In this document: positions 2,140-32,467 of the stretch, one piece after another
Position numbering within the stretch: the first letter of the stretch is position 1
How the letters are laid out: each line of letters begins with the position of its first letter
Source: Gemmatimonadales bacterium
GTDB taxonomy: Bacteria; Gemmatimonadota; Gemmatimonadetes; Gemmatimonadales; GWC2-71-9
Assembly: GCA_037189525.1 (NCBI GenBank)
Contig: JBBCJC010000003.1
Coordinates: forward strand, 608,001-672,000
Length of the DNA: 64,000 bases
Direction: 5' to 3'
Translations under genes and position numbers: made by a program
The notes under the pieces: generated by a model
The model's input: the letters and a program-made list of their open reading frames with translations, nothing else
The model's database searches: none
Told to the model about the DNA's origin: nothing

Positions 2140-2631
2140 TCATTCGGGTGGAAGCGTCGCGGCGAGGACGGTGGCCGTCTGCTTGGCACGGAAGGCCTCG
2201 AGACGCTCTGCCAGTGCCGGATCATGACGGGCCAGGATCGCCACGGCGTAGAGTCCGGCGTTATGGGCGCCGGCTTCGCCGATCGCGAAGGTTGCGACCG
2301 GCACGCCCGCGGGCATCTGGACGATCGAGAGCAGGGAATCGAGTCCCTTGAGGTGCCGGCTCGGTACCGGCACGCCCAGGATGGGAACGGTCGTTTTGGA
2401 GGCGAGCATCCCCGGCAGGTGCGCAGCGCCACCCGCGCCCGCAATGATGCAGGCCAGCCCGCGCGCGGCGGCCGACTCGGCGTACTCGAACAGAAGATCC
2501 GGCGTTCGATGCGCCGAGACGACCCGGGTCTCGTGGGGCACGGCAAACTCGGTCAGCCGCGCCGCGGCGTGCCGCATCACCTCCCAGTCGGAGGTGGAGC
2601 CCATCACGACGCCGACCAGGGGAGCTGTCAT
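2140..2631 (-). CDS. purE: N5-CAIR mutase
   Basis: [34 protein letters not shown]. Confidence 0.97.
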
Positions 2632-2632
2632 C

Positions 2633-5296
2633 TCAGAGAGTGCCTCGGGTCCGGTCCATGGTGCCGCGTTCGGCCAGCGCAGCCTGCGCCGCTGCCAGCC
2701 GCGCAATCGGCACGCGATAGGGTGAGCAGGAAACGTAGTTCATTTTCTGCTTCTCGCAGAAAGCGACCGCATTCGGTTCGCCGCCGTGCTCACCGCAGAT
2801 GCCGACTTTGAGATCCTGACGGGTCTTCCGGCCCAGTTCCACGGCCATCGAGAGCAGGCGGCCGACCCCGACGGTGTCGAGTTCCTGGAATGGGTCGAAC
2901 TCGATGATGTTGCGCTCGAGGTATGCCGGCAGGAAGTAGCCCGAGTCGTCGCGCGACAGGCCCCAGGTCGTCTGGGTCAGGTCGTTGGTGCCGAACGAGA
3001 AGAACTGCGCTTCGCGCGCAATCTCGTCGGCGGTCAGCGCGGCGCGGGGCAGCTCGATCATGGTGCCCAGCAAGTAGGGCACCGTGATCTGCCGCTCCCG
3101 GAAGACCTCTTCGGCCACCTGGCGGACAATGAGCGCCTGTTTCCGGAACTCGACCACGTGCGCCACCAGCGGAATCATCACTTCCGGCTGAACCCGGCCT
3201 TTCCGTTCGGCAACCGTGCAGGCCGCTTCGAAGATGGCCCGGGCCTGCATGGCCGTGATTTCGGGGTACATGATGCCCAGCCGGCAGCCGCGCAGGCCGA
3301 GCATCGGGTTGACCTCGTGCATCGAGTCGATGATGCGCTGGACGTCCTTGACCGACTTCCCGATCTCCTTGGCCAGATCGGCCAGTTCGCTCGCGTCGTG
3401 CGGCAGGAACTCGTGGAGCGGCGGGTCGAGCAGCCGGATGGTGACCGGGTAGCCTTCCATGGCGCGGAAGATGCCCTCGAAATCCGCGCGCTGCATCGGC
3501 AGCAGCTTGGCAAGCGCTTTCTTCCGTCCGATCTCGTCCTCGGCGAGGATCATTTCCCGCATGCTCGTCAGGCGGTCGCCTTCGAAGAACATGTGCTCGG
3601 TCCGGCAGAGCCCGATGCCCTCGGCGCCGAAGTCGCGGCCCCGGTGCGTATCGGCCGGGGTGTCGGCATTGACGCGGACGCGCAGGTGCCGCATCCGGTC
3701 GGCCCATACCATCAGCCGGTTGAAATGCTCATCGAGTACCGGCGTGACCAGTTGCGCCTGGCCGGCGTAGACCCGGCCGGTGCTGCCGTCGACGGAGATC
3801 CAGTCGCCCGCCGCAATCGAGCGCCCGTTGACGCGGAACAATGCCTCGGGTTCATCGACATCGATGTCCTGGGCGCCCGCAACGCACGGGGTGCCCATGC
3901 CGCGCGCCACGACGGCCGCGTGCGAGGTCATACCGCCGCGTGCCGTCAGAATCGCCTTGGCGGCGACCATGCCGTGGAAATCCTCCGGACTGGTCTCGCG
4001 CCGGACCAGGATGACCGGGCCCTTCTTGCTCAGCTCGGCCGCGACGTCCGCGTCGAAAACCACGGTGCCGCTTGCTGCGCCTGGAGATGCGGGCAAGCCG
4101 GTGGTGAGCAAGTCCAGCTGGGCAGTCGGATCGATGGTCGGATGCAGCAGCTGGTTCAGGTCGTTGGGAGGAATGCGGGCAACGGCTTCCTCTTCGCTGA
4201 TCGACCCCTCGTCGACCATCTCCACCGCGATCCGGACGGCGGCCTGACCGGATCGCTGGCCGCGCCTGGTCTGCAGCATGTAGAGCCGGCCGCGCTCGAT
4301 GGTGAACTCGAGGTCCTGGACGTCGCGGAAATGACGCTCCAGCGTTCGGGCGACCCGTTCGAGTTCGCCGTACGCGTGCGGCATCTGATCCTTCAGCTCG
4401 GCAATCGGGGCCGGCGTGCGGGCGCCCGAGACGACATCCTCACCCTGCGCATTGAGCAGGAACTCGCCGTAGAGCGTATGCTCACCAGTCGAAGGATTGC
4501 GGGTAAAGGCTACCCCGGTGCCGGAGTCTTCGCCCATGTTGCCGAAAACCATCGCGACCACGTTGACCGCCGTGCCCATGCTGTCCGGGATGTCGTGCAG
4601 CTTCCGGTAGTCGATGGCGCGTCGGGTATTCCAGCTTTCGAAGACGGCCTCGATGGCGCCCCAGAGCTGATCAACCGGTTCCTCGGGAAATGGCTTATTG
4701 GTTTCGCGCTCGATCAGCTCTTTGAACTCGACCACCGTGGCGCGCAGTTCGTCGATCGGCATGTCGATGTCGCGGGCCACGCCGAGCCGGTGCTTGCGCG
4801 CTTCGAGGCGCTCCTCGAAGAGCTTCTTGGGCAGGTCGAAGACGACCGCGCCGAACATCTGGACGAACCGCCGGTAGGAATCCCAGGCAAAGTGGGGGTT
4901 GCCGCTCAACCGCTCGAGCCCGGCGACCGTGGTGTCGTTGAGGCCCAGGTTGAGGATGGTTTCCATCATGCCCGGCATCGACAGGGCAGCCCCCGACCGG
5001 ACCGAGACCAGGAGGGGATTGTCCACCCCCCCGAACTGCTTGCCGGTGGCGGCCTCCAACCGTTGCAGCCCTGCCTCAACCTGGGTGCGGAGCCGCGGCG
5101 GGAACTGCCGCATGCCGAGGTAGGTGCCGCAGACGGTCGAGGCGATCGTAAACCCCGGCGGGACCGGGATGCCCAGGTTGGTCATCTCGGCCAGGCCGGC
5201 GCCCTTCCCACCGAGCGTCTCCTTCATGGCCGCTGTGCCGTCCGCGCGGCCCTGCCCGAAGAAGTAGACCAGCGGTTGGGTCAGGTGATCCGTCAT
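2633..5296 (-). CDS. ppdK: Pyruvate, phosphate dikinase
   Basis: [36 protein letters not shown] (phospho-His), [20 protein letters not shown] 5296 overlaps purF stop. Confidence 0.97.
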
Positions 5297-6690
5297 GCCG
5301 TGCTCCCAGCGAGGGTTTGGGGTCGCCCGAGCTGCATCAGCTCGTCGGCCACGTCTACCAGGTAGTGGCCCGAAAAGCAGGCGTGGCAAAAGCTGTTCCG
5401 CGCCCCGCCGGCCTTGATCATCCCGTCCAGGGAGAGGTATCCCAGGGAGTCGACCCCGAGGTAATCCCGAATCTCGGCCAGGGAATGGTTGGCGGCGATC
5501 AGCTCCGCCCGGTTCGGCGTGTCGATCCCGTAATGGCACGGCCCGGTAATGGGCGGCGACCCGAGCCGGAGGTGGACTTCCCGGGCGCCCGCCGCCCGGA
5601 TCATCGATACCAGGCCCTTGCTGGTGGTGCCGCGCACCAGGCTGTCGTCGACCACCACCACCGAGCGGCCTTCGATGACGTGGCGTACCGGGTTGAACTT
5701 GATCTTGACCTTGGCCACCCGGAGGGCCTGGGTCGGGTTGATGAAGGTCCGGCCGATGTAATGGTTCCGGATCAGCCCGTGCTCAAGCTTGAGCCCTGAT
5801 TGGTCCGCATAGCCCAGCGCCATCATGTTGGCACTGTCGGGTACACTGAAGACGACGTCGGCATCGGGCACCGGATGCTCGATGGCCAGCTGGCGGCCGA
5901 TTTCTCGGCGGACCCGGTCGACCGACTCGCCGAAGACGGTGCTGTCCGGCCGGGCAAAGTAGACCAGTTCGAAGACGCATCGCTGCGCAATCGGTGCTCG
6001 GCCGATCGGCGCGAGATCGCGCACCATGCCGTCGTCGATTTCGACGAAATCGCCGGGTGTGAGTTCACGCTCCAGGGTCGCGCCGACCAGATCGAGTGCG
6101 CAGGTTTCGGAAGCCGCGACGACGCCCTGGCCCAGCCGGCCGAGCACCAGCGGCCGAAATCCGTGGGGATCGACGGCGCAGTACAGGGTGCGCCCGACGG
6201 CGATGACCAGACTGAACGCCCCTTCGACTCGGGACAGCGCTTCGCGGATCCGGCCTTCGACCGTCGGAGCGCGCGAGCGGGCGATCAGGTGGACGATGAC
6301 TTCGGAATCCGATGACGTCTGGAAGATGGCGCCCTGGGCCACCAGTTCCTGCTTGATCGTCATCGCGTTGGTGAGGTTGCCATTGTGCGCCAGCGCGAGC
6401 GGCCCGCCCTGGATATCGGCCAGGCAGGGCTGCGCATTGGCCAGGACCGACGAGCCGGCCGTGGAGTAACGGGTGTGCCCGACGGCCACCGATCCGTCGA
6501 GCGACCGGAAGTCGCCCTCACGGAAGATGTCGCCGACCAGGCCCATTCCGCGGACCGCGTGCGGGGTGCCGTCGTCGTCCACGGTGACGATCCCGGCGCT
6601 CTCCTGCCCGCGGTGCTGGAGGGCATAGAGGCCGAGATACGCTGCCCGAGACGCATCAGGCAGGTTGGAGACACCGATCACACCGCACAT
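5293..6690 (-). CDS. purF: Amidophosphoribosyltransferase
   Basis: MCG Ntn N-terminus, LQHRGQESAG, GHTRYST, VDDSLVRGTT, Fe-S cysteines CHYGID and CHAC. Confidence 0.97.
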   Translation of the reverse strand: MCGVIGVSNLPDASRAAYLGLYALQHRGQESAGIVTVDDDGTPHAVRGMGLVGDIFREGDFRSLDGSVAVGHTRYSTAGSSVLANAQPCLADIQGGPLALAHNGNLTNAMTIKQELVAQGAIFQTSSDSEVIVHLIARSRAPTVEGRIREALSRVEGAFSLVIAVGRTLYCAVDPHGFRPLVLGRLGQGVVAASETCALDLVGATLERELTPGDFVEIDDGMVRDLAPIGRAPIAQRCVFELVYFARPDSTVFGESVDRVRREIGRQLAIEHPVPDADVVFSVPDSANMMALGYADQSGLKLEHGLIRNHYIGRTFINPTQALRVAKVKIKFNPVRHVIEGRSVVVVDDSLVRGTTSKGLVSMIRAAGAREVHLRLGSPPITGPCHYGIDTPNRAELIAANHSLAEIRDYLGVDSLGYLSLDGMIKAGGARNSFCHACFSGHYLVDVADELMQLGRPQTLAGSTA

Positions 6691-6693
6691 GGT

Positions 6694-8967
6694 TCAGGCC
6701 GCCATTCGTCGAGGAATTGCATCAAAGTAGGTCCGCCGCAGTTCGACCGTCTGCCAGGTGTGCAGCGCGGTCCCGACCGTAATGCGGAGTTCGGCATTGG
6801 GGTCGGTGACCGTACCGGCCACGGTGAAGGGCACGCCATGCGCAGCTGCCAGGTCGCGCACGGCCTCCACACTGGCCGGGTCGAACGATACCACGGCCCG
6901 GGCGCCGTCTTCTCCGTAGAAGAACGCTGCCGGGTCCATGCCATCCGGGACGGCAAACTGGACGCCGGCACCGAGGGTGTGGCGGGCGTAGGGGTCGCCG
7001 ATGCACGCTTCGGCCAGGGCGACGGCCAGGCCGCCATCCGACAAGTCATGCGCCGAGCGGAGCAGGCCCTGCTGGGCCGCGGCGACCAGGAAGCGCTGCA
7101 GTCGGACTTCCGCGTCCAGATTGCAGGGCGGCGGCGGTCCTCCCAGGAAATCGCGGACGATCCACCAGTACATCGATCCGCCGAGATGCCCGGTGGTGTC
7201 GCCGAGCAGCGCGATCAGGTCGCCGGGGTTTCGGAAGCTGCTCGGGACCCGGTTGGTGACATCCTCGAGCAGGCCGACCATGCCCACGGTCGGGGTCGGG
7301 TCGATCGCGCCGGTCGGATTCTCGTTGTAGAGCGAGACGTTGCCGCCGGTGACCGGAGTTCCGAATGCCAAGCAGGCGTCGCCCATGCCGCGGACGGCTT
7401 CGCGAAACTGGAAGAACACCTCCGGCTTGTCGGGGTTGCCGAAGTTGAGGCAGTTGGTGATCCCGAGCGGTACGGCGCCGGTGCAGGCGACATTTCGGGC
7501 CGCCTCCGCCACCGTCATCTTGCCGCCTTCGTACGGATCGAGCACCACATAGCGGTTGGGGCAGTCGACCGAGACCGCCAGGCCGAACTTGGCGTCCTCG
7601 ACCATCAGGACGCCGGCATCGCCGCCCGGGCCGAGCACGGTGTTGGCCTGGACCGTCGAGTCGTACTGTTCGTAGACCCAGCGCTTGCTGGCGATGGTCG
7701 GATCGTCGAGCAGGCGGGGCAGGGCGTCGGTCGCATCGACCACCGGCGCTGCCGTCGGCGTGGCTGCGCGCCGAGCGATGGCCTCGGGAGCCTCCAGGGC
7801 CTCGGGATGGTAGATCGGAACGCCGTTGACGAGGCGTTCACCCGGAATCGCAGCGACCGTAACACCGTCGTGCACCACGCGGAACAGACCGTCATCGGTG
7901 ACCTGGCCGATCGGGGTCCCGACCAGCTCCCACTTGGCGCAGATGGCCTGCACCTCGGCCACCCGGTGCGGCTCGACCACTACGAGCATCCGTTCCTGCG
8001 ATTCGGAGAGCAGGATTTCGTAGGGCGTCATCCCGGGTTCACGGAGCGGAACCTTGCTGGTGTCGAGTTCGACCCCGACTCCGCCGCGCGCCGCCATTTC
8101 GGCCGATGAACTGGTCAGGCCGGCCGCGCCCATGTCTTGAATCGCGACGATGGTGCCCGAGGTGATCAGTTCGAGGCTGGCTTCGAGGAGCAGCTTCTCG
8201 GTGAAGGGGTCACCCACCTGAACCTGAGGACGACGCGCTTCGCTGGCTGCGGAGAGATCCTCCGATGCGAAGCTGGCGCCGTGGATGCCGTCGCGTCCGG
8301 TCCGGGCGCCGACATTCATCAGGATGTTGCCGACACCATGCGCTCGCGCCCGAATCAGGTCTTTGGCCCGGAGAATGCCGACGCACATGGCATTGACCAG
8401 CGGGTTCCCGGCGTAGCCCGGCGCGAAGGTGACTTCGCCGCCCAGCGTCGGGACGCCGACGCAGTTGCCGTAGTCGCCGACGCCCTTGACCACGCCGCCG
8501 AAGAGGTAGCGGTTCCTCGCGTCGTCGAGCGTCCCGAAGCGGAGGCTGTTGAGCACCGCAATCGGGCGGGCGCCCATGGTAAAGACGTCACGCAGGATGC
8601 CACCTACGCCGGTAGCCGCGCCCTGATACGGTTCGACGGCCGACGGGTGATTGTGCGATTCGATCTTGAAGGCTACGGCCCAGCCGTCGGGCAGTTCCAG
8701 CACGCCGGCATTCTCACCGGGACCCTGGAGGACCTGCGGCCCCTCGGTCGGAAAGGTCTTGAGCACCGGTCGGGTGTGCTTGTAGGAACAATGCTCCGAC
8801 CAGAGCGCGCTGAAGACGCCGAGCTCGGTCAGCGTGGGCGTCCGACCGAGGATATCGAGAATGACCTCGTACTCCTGCTCGGTGAGTTTGTGCTCCCGGA
8901 CCAGGGCGTCGGTGACAGCGGGTTCTCCGGCAAACGGACTGGCGGCAACGGCGCGGGCCATGGTCAC
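6694..8967 (-). CDS. purL: FGAM synthase subunit PurL (small type)
   Basis: [46 protein letters not shown]. Confidence 0.97.
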
Positions 8968-23866: not shown

Positions 23867-24021
23867 CTCTCGGTCGCGCTCGCCTCAGTTGCTCGCGTCG
23901 TCCGAGGACAGCAGGACATGGTAGGAGCGCGTGGCGGCTCGGCTTGATCATCTCGGCTGCGCTCGCCTCAGTTGCTCGCGTCGTCCGAGGGTAGCAGGAC
24001 ATGGCGGGAGCGCGTGACGTC
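23856..24021 (+). repeat. 83-bp tandem duplication (2 copies)
   Basis: 23856-23938 vs 23939-24021, about 10 mismatches; shared core GCGCTCGCCTCAGTTGCTCGCGTCGTCCGAGG. Confidence 0.93.
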
Positions 24022-24139
24022 GCCAGACCCCCCGGCGACACCAGGGAGGGCCATTGCCCGTAAGGAGAAGTATCGTTCCGGTCTGACGCCTAGTTCCGGG
24101 CAGCCGGGTCCGAACTCACTCGCACTCTCGGGAAAGCTC

Positions 24140-25108
24140 ATGATCCTCCTCGCCGCCGCTCTCACGATGGTGACCGCCGCGACCCCGCAACCCGCCGGAC
24201 CGGTGCTCGTCGTCGTCAACAAGCCTGCCAGCACCGTCTCCGTGGTGGCGCTCACCTCCGGGAAGATTCTGGCGACGCTGCCCACCGGGAACGGACCGCA
24301 TGAGGTGGCTGCCTCCGCCGATGGACGTTGGGCGGTGGTCACCGACTACGGGGCCCAGACGCCCGGTTCGTCGCTCACGGTCGTGGACCTGCGAACCCTG
24401 ACCGTGGCGCGCACGATCCCGCTGCCCGCCAACCCGCGTCCGCACGGGGTCTGGTTCCTTCCCGACAACGTCACGGTCGCGATCTCATCCGAAGCGAGCC
24501 AGTCGGTCGTGCTCGTCGACGCCGCCCGTGGCGCCATCACGCGCACGGTGCCCACCGGGCAGGCGCTGAGCCACATGGTGGCGGTCTCGCGCGACGGGAA
24601 GCGGGGGTATACCGCCAACATCACGCCTGGTACGCTGAGCGCCGTCGATCTCGAGACGCCGGGCGAGCCCAGGGTGCTCAAGGTGGGCACCATGACCGAG
24701 GCGATCAACATCACCCCGGCCAACGATCAGGCCTGGCTGGGCAGCAACAACACCGGCAAAGTGTACGTCGTCGATCTGGCTCGCTGGCAGGTGATCGATT
24801 CGCTGCAGACGAGTGGGTTCCCGTACCGGATCGGCTTCACGCCCGACGGCGCCACCGCGATCGTCACGAATCCGCAGCAGGACGAAGTCCAGGTGATCGA
24901 CGCGAAGACCCGTGCCAAGCTGGCCACCATGCCGGTGAGCGGCGGGCCGATGGGTGTCGCAATCGCGCCGGACGGTTCGGTGGCATGGATCACGCTGGCG
25001 GGCGCGGGCGAGGTGGCCGAGATAGATCTCCGCGCCCACACGGTGCGCCGGCGGTTTGCGGCGGGGGTGGGGCCCGACGGCATCGCGTACGCCGTACCGG
25101 CGCGCTGA
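24140..25108 (+). CDS. Secreted YncE/YVTN-type beta-propeller protein
   Basis: Signal-like N-terminus; repeated blades (TGNGPHEVAASADG, GFPYRIGFTPDG, GGPMGVAIAPDG). Confidence 0.85.
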   Translation: MILLAAALTMVTAATPQPAGPVLVVVNKPASTVSVVALTSGKILATLPTGNGPHEVAASADGRWAVVTDYGAQTPGSSLTVVDLRTLTVARTIPLPANPRPHGVWFLPDNVTVAISSEASQSVVLVDAARGAITRTVPTGQALSHMVAVSRDGKRGYTANITPGTLSAVDLETPGEPRVLKVGTMTEAINITPANDQAWLGSNNTGKVYVVDLARWQVIDSLQTSGFPYRIGFTPDGATAIVTNPQQDEVQVIDAKTRAKLATMPVSGGPMGVAIAPDGSVAWITLAGAGEVAEIDLRAHTVRRRFAAGVGPDGIAYAVPAR

Positions 25109-25177: not shown

Positions 25178-25444
25178 CTATCGGAACATCGTGGGGTTGA
25201 TCTCGAGGGTCACTTCCGAGATCCGATCGACCGGGAGCCCTGCGCGCCTGGCGTGCTCCAGAACCGATTTCCGGTCCGGCGCGTCATACTCGCAGTAGAT
25301 CTTTCCCTCCGTATCGGACACATAGCTGCGGATCCATACGACGCCCGGCATCTCGCTGATCACCGCGTTGGATTTTCGCCCGGCTGCTTCGAGTTCCTCG
25401 CGTGTCAGGCTGCCGACGGTCCGTTCGATGATGTAGCGGGTCAT
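25178..25444 (-). CDS. DUF4242 (SCO4226-like) small protein
   Basis: RYIIER..GVVWIRSYVS..KIYCEYDAP..VLEHARRAGLPVDRISEV; RBS GAGGAGGGA. Confidence 0.85.
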   Translation of the reverse strand: MTRYIIERTVGSLTREELEAAGRKSNAVISEMPGVVWIRSYVSDTEGKIYCEYDAPDRKSVLEHARRAGLPVDRISEVTLEINPTMFR

Positions 25445-25463
25445 GATCCCTCCTCGCTCAGGG

Positions 25464-28400
25464 TCACCAGGTGGAGATACGGCGCAGTCGCTCGCATGCG
25501 ACGGTTAGTTCCGCGTCTTCGGATTCGTTCGCGATCAGCCCTGCCTGTTCCAACCGTTCCGCCGCCTGTTCGGTCCGGCCGTCCATCAGGCCGGTCTTCG
25601 CGAGCGCATGGAGCATCCAGCCCTCGCCGCGGCGGTCGCCGAGGGCGCGGCGGAGTTCGAGCGAGCGGCCATAGCACTCCTCCGCCCGCCGGACATTTCC
25701 TTGTTCGATCAGGACATCGCCGAGCGCGGCGAGCGCATGGGCTTCGAGGAGGCGTTCGCCCGAGCGCTGATTCACCAGGACCGCTTCGTCCAGCCGCTCA
25801 CGGGCCTGGTCCCACCGCTCCATCGCCGAGAGGGTGACGCCGATGCTGTTGAGGATCAGCCCGGTGTGCGCCGGGTCGTCGCCGTCGCGATACACGGCGA
25901 GCGCGCGCTCGTATTGTTCGAGGGCGGCGGCGTATTCCCGCCGGCTCCACTCGAGGATCCCGATCGTGTTGCGCAGCCGTCCTTCGGCAGGCCGGTCGCC
26001 CAGCGCGAGCGCCAGTTCGAGCGCGCTATGGTAGTGCGGCAGTGCGAGCGACGGCTCCGGCAACTGACGGCGGGTATTTCTGCCGAGCCCTTCCAGTGCC
26101 TCCAGTTCGCCGGCCCGATTGCGGACCTGCCGGGAGAGCGCGGCTGCCTTACTCCAGGCGGTCATTGCTCCAGCGCTGTCTCCCAACTGCTCCCGCGCGG
26201 CGGCGACCTTGCCCCAGACCAGGGCTTCATTCTCGGCGTCTTTGAGCTGGGCAAACACGCCGGCTGCCTCGTCCAGACTTCCCGCCGCGGCGCCGGCGCG
26301 TCCCAGGCCGAGCAGGACTTCGCCCTGGATCCGCAGCGACTGGGCCAGCCCGGGGGCGTACTTTGCCTTGCGGGTCAGGTCGACCGCTTCCTGATAGTAT
26401 CGCAGGCTCTCCCCGATGTCGCCGTCGAGCAGGTGGACGTGCGCAACGGAGGTGTAGTGATAGGAGAGTTGGATCGGGAGCCGCTTCTCGAGCGCGGTTT
26501 CGCCCGCGCGATGGAGGCAGGCGAGGGCCAGGGTGCGGTCGCCCCGCTCGCGATGGATGTTGGCCAGGTGGTGCAACGCATAGACCCGCTTGATCGAGAT
26601 CTCGTCCTCGACTGATCCCGCCTCGCCTGCCGTCGCGTCTTCCGAGTAGCCGAGTGCTTCCTCGAGCGCGGCCTGGGCCGATTCGTGCCGACCAAGCGAC
26701 CTGAGGATCGCGCCGAGATTGGTGAGGTCGCCCACCAGGCCGACGATGTCCTGCCGCTGGCGGTCGATCCGGAGGGTCTGCTCGACCAGCGCGAGCGCGT
26801 CCTCGTTCCGCTCCTCGTGCCAGCGCAGCAAGCCGAGGCTCCGGAGCGTGTTACGCTCGCCGACGGGGTCGCTCAGCGCGCGGCGGATTCGGAGGGAGCG
26901 TTCGAGCGCGGCTTCGGCCTCGTCGAACCGGCGGAGCAGGGTGTAGAGATCGCCCTGGCGAAGATATGTCTCGGCCAGCCGATCCTGGTCCCGCTCGGGC
27001 TCGAGCAGCGCGATCAGCTCGTCGATCAGCTGCTGTTGCCGGGCGCGATGGCCCAAGGTTTCGCAGAGGCGTTCCTGACGGAGCAGAAGGTCGATCTGCA
27101 CGTTGCGCCGTTCGGACCCGCGCGGCAGCTTGGCCAGCCAGCGCTGAGTGCGCTCGAGGATCTGGAGCGCTTCGGGAAACTGCGCCAGCTGGCTGGTCCG
27201 TTCCGCGGCGCGGAGCCCGTAGCGGACCGCTTTCTCCCACACCTCGGCGCGGCTGAAGTGGTGCGCCAGCCGCTCCAGATGCTCCTCGGGCTGATGCTCG
27301 TACAGCGTCTCGATGACCGTGCCCACCTTGCCATGCAGCTCGCGCCGCTGGTGCTCCAGCAGGCTGCCGTACGCAACCTCCTGGGTCAGGATGTGCTTGA
27401 ACCGATAGACCGGCTCTCGGCCGCCCCGCGTCTGCTGGATCACACCGGCCGCCGTGAGCGTGTCCAGCGCTGCGGGCACCGACTCCCGCTCGACCGTGGC
27501 GAGATCGAGGACACCGCGGGTGAACTCCCGTCCCACCACCGAGGCGAGACGCAATACGCCCCGCGCGCTTCGATCGATCCGGTCGAGCCGGGCGCGGATT
27601 ACCGCCTGGACGGAGTCGGGAAGGTCGAGCGTCTCGAGCGGTCCTGCCAGCCGCGCAGCAGCGCCGTCTACGCGGATCGAGCCGTCCTCGAGCAGGGCCT
27701 GGCAGATCTCTTCCAGGAAGAAGGGGTTGCCGCCGGTGCGCTCGTGCAGCAGGGCTCCGAGTTCGTCCGGGAAATGGTCGATGCAGAGGAGTGAACGTAG
27801 TAGCGTCGTCGTGGCCTCGGGCTCGAGCGGACGGAGTGCGATTGTGGTATGCAAGCTCGGGTCGCCCAACGCCACGCCGTAGCCCGGCCGGCTGGTGACG
27901 AGTACCAGGATAGGGTAGCCCGAGACCACATCGGCGAGACCTTTCAGCACCGCGTGCGACGCGTCGTCCGCCCAGTGCCAATCCTCGAGGAGCAACACCA
28001 ACGGCCGAGTCGCCGCGCTCGCGGTGAGGAACTCGACCAGGGCGTCCTGCGTGGCAAGCCGAAGCGCGTCGCCCTGGAGGTGCTTGGGCACCGGGTGGCG
28101 GGGGCTCCGAATAGAGAGCAGGTGGAGGTAGAGCGGGAGAAACTCCTCCAGCTCGGCTGCCAGCTCCCGGATTCTCCCAACGGCTTGCTCGGGCGAGACC
28201 TCCGTGTCGCCCAGGCCGATGGCGCTGCGCAGGATGTCGATGAAGGGCAGATAGGCGGCCGCGCTCCCGTACGATTGGCATCGGCCGGTCAGCACGGTCG
28301 CCTCCCGGTCGTCCAGCTGCTGGTGCAGCTCGTAGAGAAGCCGGCTCTTGCCCATGCCCGGCTCGCCCATGATGAGGACGATCTGGCCCTCGCCGCCCTG

Positions 28401-30260
28401 CGCTGCAGCCAGCGATCGGCGCAACGCCGCCAGTTCCGTCTCACGCCCCGTGTAGGCGGTGAGACCGATCTTCTCCGCAGCTTCCATGCGGGTGCGGAGC
28501 CCGGACTCTCCGATCACCCGATGGGGTACCAGGGTGTGCTTGCGGTCGCGGACGGCGAGCGGAGGTTCCGCCACGGTCTCGAAGAACGGCGCAATCAGAT
28601 GATGGCACTCCGGCGTGATCCAGAGCGCACCAGGCGGAGCCTCGTCGGCCAGGCGCGCGGCGAGTTGTGCCGGCGGGCCGACGATTCGATAGGTGCGGCC
28701 GTCGGGTCCGCCCGGATGCGCCACCACGCGCCCGGTGTCGATCCCGCTGTGGAGCGCGAGAGGCGGCCCGCCTCGGCCTTCCACCTGGCGGCTCAGCTCG
28801 GACACCCGGAGGCTGAGTTCGCGCGCGGCGCGGACGGCACGGACGGCGTCGTCTTCCTGCACCACCGGAATCCCGAAGAGCATCGTCAACTCGGCGCCGG
28901 CCTGGTGGTCGAGATACCCGCCGTGCCGGGTCGCCACCAGCGCTGCATCCTCGTGGACGCGGGCCATCACGGCGTCTACCTCGGCAGGGACCAGGGTCTC
29001 CACCAGGGCGTCGAATCCCGAGAGCACGGCGGCAACGATGGTGAGCTGGCGTCGGTCTCCGTCGGGAGGCGTTTCCGCAGGCGGGCTGTTTGGAGCATCG
29101 GTTGCTTCAGCGATAGGTCGCTTGCTTCGCATCGAGTCGGCCCCGGTGGTCGGCGCGCCGGCGGTTTCGAGCGCATCGGCCATCGCGGCGGCGCTTGGGA
29201 AGCGCTCTCCGGGTGCCTTCGCGAGCGCCCGCATCGTCATCTGCTCGAGTGTGAGCGGGACGCCCGGCTGCGCAGCGCCGAGCGGTACCGGATCGGCGCT
29301 GATGATGGCGTCGAGGAGTGCCCGGTCGGATGGTGCGACGAACGGGCGGCGTCCCGCGAGCATTTCGTACAGCACCACACCGAGCGACCAGAGATCTGTG
29401 CGCTCGTCGATTGCGTCGCCGCGGGCCTGCTCCGGGCTCATGTAGGCCGGCGTGCCGGGCGTGGTGTCCGGGTTCGTGACGCTGACATCCATCAGCTTTG
29501 CCACCCCGAAGTCCACGATCTTGACCAGCCCGCCGGCGGTGAGCATCAGATTCGCGGGCTTGATGTCGCGATGGATGATCCCGCGCGCGTGTGCCGCGGC
29601 CAGGCCGCGCGCCACCTGCCGCGCGATGTCGGCCGCCTGCTCGGCGGGAAGGGGACCGGCAGCGATCCGCTGGTGCAGTGTCTCGCCCTCGTAGTACGGC
29701 ATCGCGAGGTAGAGCTGGCCTTCGTCGGTCTCGCCGATCTCATAGATCGTGCAGACGTTCGGATGGTCGAGCGCCGCGGCCGCCTGCGCCTCCAGCCGGA
29801 ATCGCTCCGCGGCGCGCGGGTCGGCGCCCAGGTGAAACGGAAGGAACTTGAGAGCGACCAGGCGGTCGAGCTGGCGGTCGCGGGCCCGGTACACGACGCC
29901 CATTCCCCCGCCGGCCAGCTTCCCGAGCATCTCGTAGCGCGCGATGCGATACGGCCCCGGCTGGGTCGGTTCGGCGGAGGTGGCAGATGGCGCGAGTGAC
30001 GTCGCCAGCTCCGCGGCGGACCCGTCGAGCAGGCTGGCCCGGTCGTGCGCGGCGAGCAGCGAGACGACTTCATCGCGGAGGCCGGGCTCGTTGCGGCAGG
30101 CGCGCTCGAGAAAGTCGGTTCGTTCGTCGGGCGTAAGCTCGGCAGCGGCGGCAAAGACGCGCTCGACGTCCGGCCAGGCGGGAGCGGGGGCCCGCGGTGC
30201 GGGCCGGCCGATCAGGCGCCCGAGTGCGAGCCAGAGCCGCCGGGCCGCCGAGTCGCTCAC
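25464..30260 (-). CDS. Ser/Thr kinase + degenerate class III cyclase + STAND ATPase + TPR protein (~1598 aa)
   Basis: GGGMGVVY, VALK, HRDIKPAN, DFG, YMSPE; cyclase-like RRQLTIV..EDDAVRAVRAA..GIDTG..LAARL; Walker A GEPGMGKS, Walker B LLLEDWHWAD, GGNPFFLEE; ~500 aa of TPRs; GTG 30260 overlaps the sigma stop. Confidence 0.92.
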   Translation of the reverse strand: MSDSAARRLWLALGRLIGRPAPRAPAPAWPDVERVFAAAAELTPDERTDFLERACRNEPGLRDEVVSLLAAHDRASLLDGSAAELATSLAPSATSAEPTQPGPYRIARYEMLGKLAGGGMGVVYRARDRQLDRLVALKFLPFHLGADPRAAERFRLEAQAAAALDHPNVCTIYEIGETDEGQLYLAMPYYEGETLHQRIAAGPLPAEQAADIARQVARGLAAAHARGIIHRDIKPANLMLTAGGLVKIVDFGVAKLMDVSVTNPDTTPGTPAYMSPEQARGDAIDERTDLWSLGVVLYEMLAGRRPFVAPSDRALLDAIISADPVPLGAAQPGVPLTLEQMTMRALAKAPGERFPSAAAMADALETAGAPTTGADSMRSKRPIAEATDAPNSPPAETPPDGDRRQLTIVAAVLSGFDALVETLVPAEVDAVMARVHEDAALVATRHGGYLDHQAGAELTMLFGIPVVQEDDAVRAVRAARELSLRVSELSRQVEGRGGPPLALHSGIDTGRVVAHPGGPDGRTYRIVGPPAQLAARLADEAPPGALWITPECHHLIAPFFETVAEPPLAVRDRKHTLVPHRVIGESGLRTRMEAAEKIGLTAYTGRETELAALRRSLAAAQGGEGQIVLIMGEPGMGKSRLLYELHQQLDDREATVLTGRCQSYGSAAAYLPFIDILRSAIGLGDTEVSPEQAVGRIRELAAELEEFLPLYLHLLSIRSPRHPVPKHLQGDALRLATQDALVEFLTASAATRPLVLLLEDWHWADDASHAVLKGLADVVSGYPILVLVTSRPGYGVALGDPSLHTTIALRPLEPEATTTLLRSLLCIDHFPDELGALLHERTGGNPFFLEEICQALLEDGSIRVDGAAARLAGPLETLDLPDSVQAVIRARLDRIDRSARGVLRLASVVGREFTRGVLDLATVERESVPAALDTLTAAGVIQQTRGGREPVYRFKHILTQEVAYGSLLEHQRRELHGKVGTVIETLYEHQPEEHLERLAHHFSRAEVWEKAVRYGLRAAERTSQLAQFPEALQILERTQRWLAKLPRGSERRNVQIDLLLRQERLCETLGHRARQQQLIDELIALLEPERDQDRLAETYLRQGDLYTLLRRFDEAEAALERSLRIRRALSDPVGERNTLRSLGLLRWHEERNEDALALVEQTLRIDRQRQDIVGLVGDLTNLGAILRSLGRHESAQAALEEALGYSEDATAGEAGSVEDEISIKRVYALHHLANIHRERGDRTLALACLHRAGETALEKRLPIQLSYHYTSVAHVHLLDGDIGESLRYYQEAVDLTRKAKYAPGLAQSLRIQGEVLLGLGRAGAAAGSLDEAAGVFAQLKDAENEALVWGKVAAAREQLGDSAGAMTAWSKAAALSRQVRNRAGELEALEGLGRNTRRQLPEPSLALPHYHSALELALALGDRPAEGRLRNTIGILEWSRREYAAALEQYERALAVYRDGDDPAHTGLILNSIGVTLSAMERWDQARERLDEAVLVNQRSGERLLEAHALAALGDVLIEQGNVRRAEECYGRSLELRRALGDRRGEGWMLHALAKTGLMDGRTEQAAERLEQAGLIANESEDAELTVACERLRRISTW

Positions 30261-30817
30261 GCCGAGCACTCGCGGTTGAGCCACGCTCTGGCGAGCAACC
30301 AGTCGCGCTTGACCGTGGCGGGTGAGATGCCCAGCAGTTCGGCCGTCTCCTCGATCGTCAGGCCCGCGAAGTAGCGGCACTCGACGATCCGGACCAGGCG
30401 CTCATTGGTTCGCTCCATCGCCGTGAGCGCTTCATCGAGTGCCAGCATCTGGTCCGCCTGCTGGTCGGTGATCCACATGTCGTCCTCGAGGGCCACCTTG
30501 CGCCGCGCGCCCCCTCGCTTCGCCGCCTGCCGAGCAAGCGCGTGGTCTACCAGGACCCGCCGCATCGCCCGGGCGGCGATGGCGAAGAACTGAGCGCGGT
30601 TTTTCCACTCGATGTGATCGAGGCCGCCGAGCTTGAGGTAGGCTTCATGGACGAGATCGCTGGTGGCCAGCGTGTGATCGGAACGCTCCGACCGCAGCTG
30701 GCGGCGGGCGAGGTGCCGCAGCTCGTCGTAGACGATCGGCAGGAGCCGGTCGAGTGCGTCCTTGCCGCCGTGGCCGATGGCGGCCAACAGCTGTGTCACA
30801 TCTCCGGAATCCGGCAT
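30257..30817 (-). CDS. ECF sigma factor, kinase-associated type (TIGR02999 / ECF43-like)
   Basis: VTQLL..LLPIVYDELRHLARRQL..HTLATSDLVHEAYLKL..RAQFFAIAARAMRRVLVD..TVKRDWLLARAWL. Confidence 0.93.
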   Translation of the reverse strand: MPDSGDVTQLLAAIGHGGKDALDRLLPIVYDELRHLARRQLRSERSDHTLATSDLVHEAYLKLGGLDHIEWKNRAQFFAIAARAMRRVLVDHALARQAAKRGGARRKVALEDDMWITDQQADQMLALDEALTAMERTNERLVRIVECRYFAGLTIEETAELLGISPATVKRDWLLARAWLNRECSA

Positions 30818-31225
30818 CGGATGGTTTTCCAGGAGGGGATTGGCAGGTGCAACGCGAAAACCCCCATCGCGAGATAATATAGCTTGGCATCCGAGGGAAC
30901 AACTGAGCCGCTACATCCCAGAACAGGCATGTGTGGCGTGGTGCGAAAGCGGGCGGCGGAGCAGGTCCGACTCGGCACTTCAGCGCTGTCGCGATCCCCG
31001 GCGAGGCTGCCGTCGCGTTGGGACATGACGCAGGTGCAGTGCATGCGCAGATCCTGATCATGGCGCGCCGCGATCGGTGCGCCCCTTATCCGTCAGGTGA
31101 GCCGGGCGCCGATGAGCCAATCCGGCCGTTTTTCCGGCTTCTATCGATGAGCGGGATCACCGACCCTTCCGGTTGTCGGTCCCATTCCCGAATTCCCGAT
31201 ACCCGCAGCTTCGAGGAGACGCCCG

Positions 31226-32467
31226 ATGGAACCCACCGCCGCTCCACCCGCCCACAGCGCCTCGACGTCTCGGCCCGCCGCCCAGAGCGGTTCGCCCTCC
31301 GACCGGTCCCCCTTCACGGTCGAGATGCTGGAGCGTTTTCAGCAACGCTCTGCCGGATACGATCGCGAGAATCGATTCTTCACCGAAGACTTCGAGGAGC
31401 TTCGCGATGCGGGCTACCTGACGTTGCCCGTGCCGCGCGAGTTGGGTGGCCGAGGGTATACACTGGCGCAGGTGGCGCAGGAGCAACGGCGGTTGGGGTA
31501 CTACGCGGCGCCCACGGCGCTCGCGGTCAACATGCATCTCTATTGGGTCGGACTGGTGGCCGATCTGTGGCGGAACGGCGATCGGTCGCTCGAATGGCTC
31601 CTCAAGGAGGCGGCGAACGGCGCTGTCTTCGCGGCCGGTCATGCGGAGAGTGGCAACGACATCCCGGTCCTCCTTTCCACCACGCGCGCCGAGCGGGTGG
31701 AAGGCGGCTACTGCTTCTACGGTCACAAGATGTTCGGCAGCCTGACGCCGGTCTGGACCATGCTCGGGATTCACGGCCTCGACACCAGCGATCCGAGTGC
31801 GCCCAAGGTGGTGCACGCTTTCATGCCGCGCGACAGCAAAGGCTACAGCATCAAGGAGAGCTGGGACGTGCTGGGCATGCGCGCCACCCGGAGCGACGAC
31901 ACGATCCTCGACGGGGTCTTCGTGCCCGACCGGTACATCGCGCGGGTAGTGCCGGCAGGCGCCGCGGGGGTCGACGGATTCGTTTTGGGCGTGTTCGCCT
32001 GGGCGCTGCTGGGATTCGGCAACATCTATTACGGCCTGGCCCAACGAGCCCGCGATCTCATCGTCGAGCACCTGCCGAAAAAGACGTCGATCGGCCTCTC
32101 GCGGCCGATGGCCTATCACGCCGAGGTGCAGCATGCGGTGGCGGAAATCGTGCTCGAGTTGGAGGGCATCGGTCCGCATCTCGATCGTACGGCGCAGGAG
32201 TGGTCGGACGGGGTGGATCACGGGGTGGGCTGGGTGATCAAAATCGTCGCCGCGAAATACCACGCGGTGGAGAGCGCCTGGAAAGTGGTCGATCGCGCGT
32301 TCGAGCTGGCGGGCGGGGCCGGCATCTTCAAGAAGGGCCCCTTCGAGCAGCTCTTCCGCGACGCTCGGCTCGGTCGCATTCACCCGGCCAATTCGTTCCT
32401 GACGCACGAGCTCTGTGCCAAGCTCACGCTCGGGATCAACCCCGACGAAGCGCCGCGTTGGGGGTGA
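31226..32467 (+). CDS. Acyl-CoA dehydrogenase-fold flavoprotein (possibly a flavin-dependent monooxygenase)
   Basis: VPRELGGRG, ALAVNMH, GHKMFGS, WDVLGMRATRS, AGGAGI, FRDARLGRIHP. Confidence 0.85.
   Translation: MEPTAAPPAHSASTSRPAAQSGSPSDRSPFTVEMLERFQQRSAGYDRENRFFTEDFEELRDAGYLTLPVPRELGGRGYTLAQVAQEQRRLGYYAAPTALAVNMHLYWVGLVADLWRNGDRSLEWLLKEAANGAVFAAGHAESGNDIPVLLSTTRAERVEGGYCFYGHKMFGSLTPVWTMLGIHGLDTSDPSAPKVVHAFMPRDSKGYSIKESWDVLGMRATRSDDTILDGVFVPDRYIARVVPAGAAGVDGFVLGVFAWALLGFGNIYYGLAQRARDLIVEHLPKKTSIGLSRPMAYHAEVQHAVAEIVLELEGIGPHLDRTAQEWSDGVDHGVGWVIKIVAAKYHAVESAWKVVDRAFELAGGAGIFKKGPFEQLFRDARLGRIHPANSFLTHELCAKLTLGINPDEAPRWG

Follow-up and report, generated by a model that had tools for sequence, protein, structure and literature searches.

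How would a protein kinase built like an intracellular immune receptor hand its signal over to a sigma factor, and which genes would answer? This question is raised by a locus of the Gemmatimonadales bacterium assembly GCA_037189525.1, located in a 64,000-nucleotide (nt) stretch of contig JBBCJC010000003.1 (positions 608,001-672,000 of the forward strand), hereafter called the window, whose positions provide all coordinates given below. Three consecutive genes encode an extracytoplasmic function (ECF) sigma factor, a protein of 1598 amino acids (aa) combining a Hanks-type kinase with a STAND (signal transduction ATPase with numerous domains) core and tetratricopeptide repeats (TPR), and a small DUF4242 protein. 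With a nearby flavoenzyme gene they constitute a recurrent four-gene regulatory unit, in which known parts are connected in an undescribed wiring and to which a promoter and a target gene can be assigned by prediction. Taken as a whole, its interpretation as a cytoplasmic signalling cassette, running from a STAND-TPR/DUF4242 sensor through the kinase and an ECF43-type sigma to the flavoenzyme promoter, is regarded here as moderately probable.

A first-pass annotation, made from the nucleotide letters, had placed the three open reading frames (ORFs) on the minus strand at coordinates that are confirmed here, together with the overlap by which the TGA of the sigma gene shares GTGA with the GTG start of the 1598-aa ORF, and with the DUF4242 start located 19 nt past the large-protein stop, AGGAGG lying four bases ahead of its ATG. 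It had missed the dead cyclase fold, the promoter motif at 31113-31140 and the flavoenzyme gene at 31226-32467. The features are as follows.

30257..30817, minus strand: ECF sigma factor of TIGR02999/ECF43 type, 186 aa, sigma2.2 motif ATSD (library profile matches)
25464..30260, minus strand: helical domain-kinase-pseudocyclase-STAND-TPR protein, 1598 aa, GTG start (profile matches, models)
30006..30185, minus strand: N-terminal helical domain of that protein, aa ~26-85, PknS-like, putative sigma-docking domain (PknS alignment, co-occurrence)
29157..29945, minus strand: Hanks-type Ser/Thr kinase domain, aa ~106-368, with K138, E157, D232, N237, D250 and the activation-loop T262/T270 intact
28491..29069, minus strand: pseudocyclase, a class III cyclase fold, aa ~398-590, without either metal aspartate or the transition-state asparagine
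27231..28475, minus strand: STAND ATPase core, aa ~596-1010, with Walker A K638-S639, Walker B E759-D760, R791 and GGNP
25467..27230, minus strand: TPR array, aa ~1011-1598, 29 helices in the model or about 14 repeats, putative sensor
25449..25454, minus strand: ribosome-binding site AGGAGG of the DUF4242 gene
25178..25444, minus strand: DUF4242 (PF14026) protein, 88 aa, STAND-linked subfamily, SCO4226 fold without its nickel ligands
31113..31140, plus strand: conserved bipartite ECF-type promoter motif, TGAGCC-N12-TTTCCGGCT-like, predicted target site of the sigma
31226..32467, plus strand: 413-aa flavoprotein with acyl-CoA-dehydrogenase fold, catalytic Glu missing, the fourth gene to recur and probably the regulated output

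Recurrence of the locus and a conserved promoter motif

A set of 401 genomes of the phylum was searched with the cyclase-STAND part of the large protein (one unpublished genome, G156, being counted only in the 401-genome tallies). A match was obtained in 35 of them, 22 of which, including the window genome, form a close group where DUF4242 lies directly downstream in 18 of the 19 loci with enough downstream DNA. Besides, three truncated loci have a DUF4242 of the subfamily elsewhere in their genome, on a different short contig, where it stands behind a TPR end in two cases. Neither DUF4242 nor the sigma was detected in any of 15 more distant cyclase-STAND loci. In the same line, a metagenome search with the DUF4242 subfamily, of which the best 80 of at least 562 matches were read, left 69 loci once 11 with less than 230 nt upstream had been set aside, and a TPR end directly precedes DUF4242 in 67 of them (L103 among these being only a fragment) and not in the two others. 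PF14026 as a whole is commoner, since it occurs in 121/401 genomes, with a single gene in the window genome; out of 40 further PF14026 stretches, 37 fell outside the subfamily, none of them adjoining this STAND clade and some being fused to a cyclase domain.

The sigma gene is found in 27 of the 37 loci with enough upstream DNA, directly upstream in 26, and the N-terminal helical domain tracks it, being present in 27/27 loci with the sigma versus 2/10 without, these last two carrying an added alpha/beta-hydrolase domain; this co-occurrence supports a functional link between the two. The co-occurrence of the three genes, on which the first-pass annotation had counted, is widespread across the phylum, beyond what chance would give, but does not extend to the sigma as a fixed member, since it is absent from 10/37 loci: the fixed core is the STAND gene with DUF4242, the sigma being a frequent but exchangeable output.

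Clustering of all neighbouring ORFs brought out one strong recurrent neighbour, the acyl-CoA-dehydrogenase-fold gene that occupies 31226-32467 in the window. It is present in 26 loci, the window included, where it is divergent from the sigma (7), convergent behind DUF4242 (16) or otherwise placed (3), and in just 13/401 genomes of the phylum, 10 of these 13 carrying the system. A bipartite TGAGCC-N12-TTTCCCGCCT-like motif, first spotted by eye, precedes this gene in 21 of 27 upstream regions and in both gene orders, the window copy lying 86 nt before the flavoenzyme start. When the matrix is trained without the window site, 31113-31140 comes top in the 4.65-Mb genome with 31.6 bits versus 19.4 for the next site, and shuffled window sequences return 0.06 matches on average. 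Among the 27 sigma-bearing loci, 24 score for the motif, namely the window, 11 held-out loci and 12 that contributed training sites, versus 0/10 sigma-less loci, and no site was found in 183 kb of outgroup loci. The matrix also recovers non-training sites ahead of genes for secreted lipoproteins, cupins, oxidases of the flavin adenine dinucleotide (FAD)/BBE type and the sigma itself. This conserved ECF-type promoter motif indicates a transcriptional output, as had been anticipated from the locus alone.

Concerning the flavoenzyme, its RIHPA sequence aligns to RIGEG of 1ws9 and the catalytic glutamate is absent. A canonical acyl-CoA dehydrogenase was therefore rejected, the better matches being 5z8t/5gj7 and the FAD oxidoreductase 3m9v/4kcf, and a flavin monooxygenase seems more likely.

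Several further genes were noticed around the motif and the locus. A secreted lipoprotein family of about 200 aa, without Pfam match, follows the motif in L047 (4553-5149), L045, L052, L089, L109, L117, L125 and L147, and FAD/BBE oxidase genes do so in L042 and L102. In the window genome, two weaker sites that keep TGAGCC and differ in the second element (G000:C2:87953, plus strand; G000:C5:1151165, minus strand) lie beside two other TIGR02999 sigma-kinase operons. An OsmC-like gene stands directly behind DUF4242 in 10 metagenome loci (L080, L083, L087, L090, L096, L098, L106, L108, L111, L120). In the window, a secreted YVTN-type beta-propeller gene (23972-25108, plus strand) converges on the DUF4242 gene; a role for it was rejected as it is not a recurrent neighbour, and a scan for sigma-70 promoters and terminators near the DUF4242 end found none. 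Finally, a single-protein pattern scan of the genome contigs gave only 2 loci, one a 107-aa fragment; a 107-aa piece (L001:1-330), 93% identical to the STAND core, ends a short contig binned as Verrucomicrobiota, is followed by unrelated sequence and is probably chimeric.

The STAND-TPR protein and DUF4242

Profile searches of the large protein returned Pkinase (109-315), Guanylate_cyc (405-572, weak, E 1e-5), AAA_16 (604-786) and TPR families up to about residue 1540. The kinase and STAND motifs read in the first pass (GEPGMGKS, LLLEDW, GGNP) are all present, and the order of Walker A, Walker B, GxP motif, helical and winged-helix domains and then a repeat sensor is that of an AAA_16/SWACOS-like STAND NTPase. 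The structure model of residues 399-1598 is confident (mean predicted local distance difference test score, pLDDT, 88), with the STAND-TPR protein of PDB 6MFV as its best structural match. Among the 79 relatives aligned, out of 120 listed homologues, K138, E157, D232, N237 and D250 of the kinase are each kept in 78-79 and Walker A and B in 77-79, the catalytic residues of kinase and STAND taken together being kept in 74-79. The names borne by the nearest homologues point to Gemmatimonadota. As for the cyclase fold, the first metal aspartate is found in 1/79 relatives and the transition-state asparagine in 2/79, while the window protein also lacks the second aspartate; an active class III cyclase was rejected on these grounds, and the dead fold is probably a structural or dimerising spacer. 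Two relatives (P0016, P0019) contain a second, N-terminal cyclase domain, and one (P0048) has a BTAD domain replacing the kinase.

A weak alignment (E 0.05 alone) links residues ~26-85 to the N-terminal extension of PknS (PDB 9EED), the only chain among the PDB matches listed to align over both the helical domain and the kinase. The absence of a transmembrane segment, claimed earlier, holds for the window protein, whose highest 19-residue hydropathy is 1.85, in a strand of the cyclase fold, versus 2.07-2.79 in four kinase-transmembrane-TPR paralogues of the same genome. It does not hold for 22/79 relatives, which have one or two membrane helices at the extreme N-terminus; since these precede the kinase, such relatives are probably tethered to the membrane with all signalling domains inside.

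The window DUF4242 protein matches PF14026 with E 8e-26, its model (pLDDT 97) superposes on the SCO4226 fold (Z 12.8, root-mean-square deviation 1.4 Å over 80 residues), and its ESM Atlas matches are PF14026 clusters only. The subfamily is strongly conserved (mean column identity 85%), with invariant W37, S40, S43, C51, E52 and Y53, a near-invariant H64 and a conserved C-terminal P-x-M-F, a pattern which suggests a pocket and a binding surface. A complex prediction between one DUF4242 copy and residues 399-1310 of the large protein scored 0.00, a value obtained without controls and valid for this part and stoichiometry alone. Natural DUF4242-STAND fusions were sought among longer proteins, where the 9 candidates read out of 16 matches, largely read-through frames, genes with a wrong start or a tandem duplicate, provided no convincing full fusion, which is weak evidence. 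A fused tandem DUF4242 is represented by P0243, and in L188 (5958-9662, minus strand) two divergent DUF4242 genes stand in tandem behind a kinase-AAA-TPR gene that lacks the cyclase fold.

DUF4242 might also be a co-transcribed output protein of the same response, either a small enzyme or a ligand sink, rather than a partner of the STAND protein. Its conserved residues W37, S40, S43, C51, E52, Y53 and H64 could form an active site, and other DUF4242 subfamilies stand alone or follow a lipoprotein gene opposite BTAD-TPR regulators, as regulated genes would (such stand-alone copies, preceded by the secreted lipoprotein family of about 200 aa mentioned above, were seen in L162, L168, L169, L180, L186, L187 and L189). 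However, DUF4242 stays with the STAND gene where sigma and motif are absent, whereas the flavoenzyme and lipoprotein targets come and go; distant DUF4242 proteins are likewise encoded just behind STAND genes whose output is a cyclase or LuxR; and STAND and DUF4242 identities co-vary (Mantel r 0.65), although shared descent could contribute to this. An output role is thus judged unlikely, if still a serious contender, and DUF4242 is preferably read as part of the sensor.

The pairing was also met outside the phylum. A plasmid search gave 44 records, and the eight regions read comprise four with DUF4242 directly behind a STAND gene, one behind a TPR gene and three with a stand-alone DUF4242. SAM-cyclase-STAND genes are followed by DUF4242 on Rhizobium, Paraburkholderia and Ruegeria plasmid regions, the proteobacterial STAND-linked cyclases keeping both metal aspartates, and a STAND-LuxR gene is so in Deinococcus taeanensis. 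A FAD/BBE oxidase adjoins the pair in Ruegeria and in the viral-collection contig L149. Since cyclase and LuxR forms occur in Proteobacteria and Deinococcus, the STAND-DUF4242 pairing crosses phyla with different outputs, while the DUF4242 tree, with its few columns and long branches, does not show a single clade or origin of the STAND-linked forms. The L149 copy (2379-7990; FAD/BBE oxidase, SAM-cyclase-STAND and DUF4242) lies between transposase-like and serine recombinase-like genes and looks like mobile cargo. On a Mycobacterium dioxanotrophicus plasmid, a DUF4242 of the stand-alone type follows a methane/ammonia monooxygenase-type operon (L206:1903-6273).

A wider proposal, put forward tentatively and with the balance slightly tilted against it, is that DUF4242 in these clades serves signalling STANDs across phyla as a dedicated co-sensor or inhibitor. 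A single input module would be connected to a kinase with ECF43 sigma, an intact cyclase, a LuxR helix-turn-helix (HTH) or a hydrolase-kinase, and flavin-oxidase genes would in this way be controlled by an intracellular small molecule. The window system would then be the first NLR-like switch (that is, resembling nucleotide-binding leucine-rich repeat receptors) to signal via a phosphorylated sigma, and DUF4242 would gain its first regulatory function.

A proposed path from kinase to sigma factor

The window sigma matches PF07638 with E 5e-55 and TIGR02999 with 215.6 bits against a cut-off of 126. Its gene adjoins that of the Hanks kinase, with no anti-sigma gene, as in ECF43 sigma-kinase pairs. 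The DxxD motif is replaced by ATSD, so that Ser53 occupies the third position, which is the canonical ECF43 phosphosite in the QTTA motif described in passages of PMC13147305. The sigma thus appears to be of ECF43 type, an assignment made from motif, gene order and PknS match rather than from formal ECF-group hidden Markov models. Seven TIGR02999 sigmas exceed the cut-off in the window genome; four precede ordinary kinase-transmembrane-TPR genes and only the one of the window precedes a STAND kinase. In another locus (L034:6553-11718, minus strand), the sigma and the kinase-STAND gene form one 1721-aa frame in which the last residues of the sigma look frame-shifted, either through natural fusion or through assembly error.

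Based on these parts, the following mechanism can be proposed. The STAND-TPR protein and the 88-aa DUF4242, whose genes are linked, would make up the sensor unit, in which DUF4242 may contact the STAND protein as co-sensor or inhibitor. By analogy with MalT and PH0952, the closed STAND core would become oligomeric on meeting a cue from inside the cell, which the target genes suggest to be most likely a small organic molecule. Oligomerisation would then bring the kinase domains together for self-activation. The kinase would hold the ECF43-type sigma via the N-terminal helical domain with which it co-occurs, and would activate it, in the window genome plausibly at Ser53 or Thr52, as EcfK and EcfP suggest. 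The sigma would in turn recognise the TGAGCC-N12-TTTCCCGCCT promoters, driving the divergent flavoenzyme gene in the window and, in other loci, its own operon as well as genes for FAD-linked oxidases and secreted lipoproteins. The output would be a metabolic or detoxification response and not cell death.

ECF43 sigmas are activated by phosphorylation, according to passages of PMC13147305, PMC8999054 and PMC7826278. Among 26 linked sigmas, the canonical site is Thr in 13, Ser in 1, Asp in 6 and another, non-acceptor residue in 6, whereas Thr52, the preceding residue, is kept in 24/26. The idea of canonical-site phosphorylation as a universal switch is weakened by this distribution.

Several observations weigh against the cassette as proposed. 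The chief one against a uniform phosphorylation switch is that only 14/26 linked sigmas carry Ser or Thr at the canonical site, and the first position of the sigma2.2 motif is D or E in 20/26; with such a variable phosphosite and an acidic first residue, several sigmas may not need phosphorylation there. Besides the 10/37 loci devoid of sigma, one locus (L036), the sole exception among the 19 of the close group, lacks DUF4242 and carries a BTAD domain where the kinase would be. The motif is not exclusive to the system: its exact pattern occurs in 11/15 genomes with a sigma-bearing system and also in 65/386 other genomes (25/401 for the reversed control), and it also stands ahead of the flavoenzyme gene of G045, a genome in which no copy of the system was found; other ECF43 paralogues may therefore read it. 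The loci are related and partly redundant, some being near-duplicates, so that the counts overstate their independence. Finally, the ligand, the contact and role of DUF4242, the oligomer-driven activation of the kinase, the phosphorylation of the sigma and its promoter recognition are deduced from sequence and analogy.

The variability of the phosphosite opens the way to another explanation, namely that the helical domain holds an intrinsically competent sigma as an anti-sigma would, the sigma being freed by STAND activation or kinase autophosphorylation and sigma2.2 phosphorylation being dispensable. The Asp and non-acceptor residues at the canonical site (6/26 each), the acidic first residues, the Asp54 retained by the window sigma and the tracking of the sigma by the helical domain all agree with it, as does the EcfK T51A mutant, which stays functional according to passages of PMC13147305. 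Nevertheless, the widely kept Thr52 could be the acceptor, the same passages describe further phosphosites in the linker of EcfK, and the kinase is intact in 78/79 relatives, so that release by sequestration is considered improbable and activation by the kinase is retained as the preferred mechanism.

The cues named in the first pass also included a phage protein and a metal. An Avs/NLR-like anti-phage receptor, whose TPRs would sense a phage protein and whose kinase would halt the cell or trigger a defence programme, is evoked by the STAND-TPR architecture, by the patchy distribution (22/401 genomes) and by matches of the kinase domain to the PADLOC models PD-T4-6 and mad6. These matches, however, span the generic kinase domain only; among 145 of the 161 neighbouring proteins, from 15 of the 17 loci, PADLOC matches appear in 7, each with a different model set and none recurring; and the recurrent neighbours are flavoenzymes, lipoproteins and OsmC. 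Besides, a search of viral contigs turned up no member of the close subfamily and a single 38% relative. As neither a defence-island context with recurrent defence neighbours nor a toxic effector was found, a phage trigger is very doubtful. Nickel or metal sensing, in which DUF4242 would bind metal as SCO4226 does, is slightly less credible still, because the shared fold, the invariant Cys51 and the near-invariant His64 contrast with the replacement of the conserved SCO4226 nickel ligands H23, D43, S46, E74 and H76 (reported in passages of PMC4186839) by G22, S43, E46, R74 and S76, with a score of 33.6 against a cut-off of 125 for NF033706, the SCO4226 nickel-binding family, which led to the rejection of an SCO4226-type nickel binder, and with the lack of any recurrent metal-handling gene nearby.

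Relation to known systems

If correct, the cassette would widen the reach of ECF43 sigmas activated by phosphorylation, until now demonstrated with receptor kinases of the membrane, to cues arising inside the cell. STAND switches and kinase-sigma pairs, otherwise separate modes of bacterial signalling, would be joined in it. The locus provides an example of a STAND-TPR kinase that is immune-looking by architecture and yet devoid of defence context. It also gives DUF4242 a concrete, testable role beside STAND proteins, including in the culturable hosts Rhizobium, Ruegeria and Deinococcus, and the predicted promoter and target gene offer a ready reporter that permits ligand screening. Literature searches, which did not extend to subscription papers or supplements, returned no account of the combination; the architecture could be listed in the survey of ECF43 kinase domains by Iyer et al., in Text S2 of PMC7826278 or in the clade table of PMC13581612. 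What had been presented as a novel architecture appears new as a combination, since the kinase-cyclase-STAND-TPR order itself is already found in the TOMM (thiazole/oxazole-modified microcin) kinase/cyclase fusion TIGR03903, which the large protein matches over residues 134-1092 (E 1e-133). In contrast to this fusion, it has an extra helical domain, a linked sigma, DUF4242 and a dead cyclase; with 447.6 bits under the cut-off of 705.75 and no TOMM genes among the recurrent neighbour clusters, a TOMM system was rejected.

Like Avs and bacterial NLR receptors, the window protein has an N-terminal effector-STAND-TPR layout, but it differs from them by a promoter-linked metabolic output and by the lack of toxic effector domain and defence neighbourhood. 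The SWACOS clade of STANDs, which counts with TIGR03903 among the closest known systems, is named in PMC7159879 and PMC13581612, whose available passages do not mention DUF4242. A STAND domain is also predicted in human soluble adenylyl cyclase. Like Streptomyces coelicolor SCO4226 (PF14026), the window DUF4242 has a ferredoxin-like fold and shares Cys51 and His64/65, from which it departs by about 25% identity, lost nickel ligands, a conserved C-terminal E-I-x-P-x-M-F tail and its linkage to a STAND gene.

The closest parallels lie at the two ends of the proposed pathway. As in Xanthomonas citri EcfK/PknS and Vibrio parahaemolyticus EcfP/PknT, the sigma gene stands directly ahead of a Hanks kinase gene and has a non-DAED sigma2.2 motif, whereas the canonical phosphosite is variable in the clade of the window. 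PknS has an alignable N-terminal helical extension and C-terminal TPRs as well, but these are periplasmic and follow a membrane helix, while the window protein, without membrane helix after the kinase and thus unlike the membrane-receptor form of ECF43, has a pseudocyclase, a STAND core and cytoplasmic TPRs instead, plus a DUF4242 partner. Like MalT, AfsR and PH0952, it couples a STAND core and a TPR sensor to a transcriptional output; these bind DNA themselves through an HTH or SARP domain, whereas here a kinase is proposed to act on a separate sigma. Closed-to-oligomer switching of STANDs is established (PMC6468293, PMC10427625), and PMC10427625 further provides the precedent of MalY, a separate protein under whose control STAND oligomerisation takes place; DUF4242 is unrelated to MalY. 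By analogy, the system would resemble PknS/EcfK at its output end and MalT/MalY at its input end.

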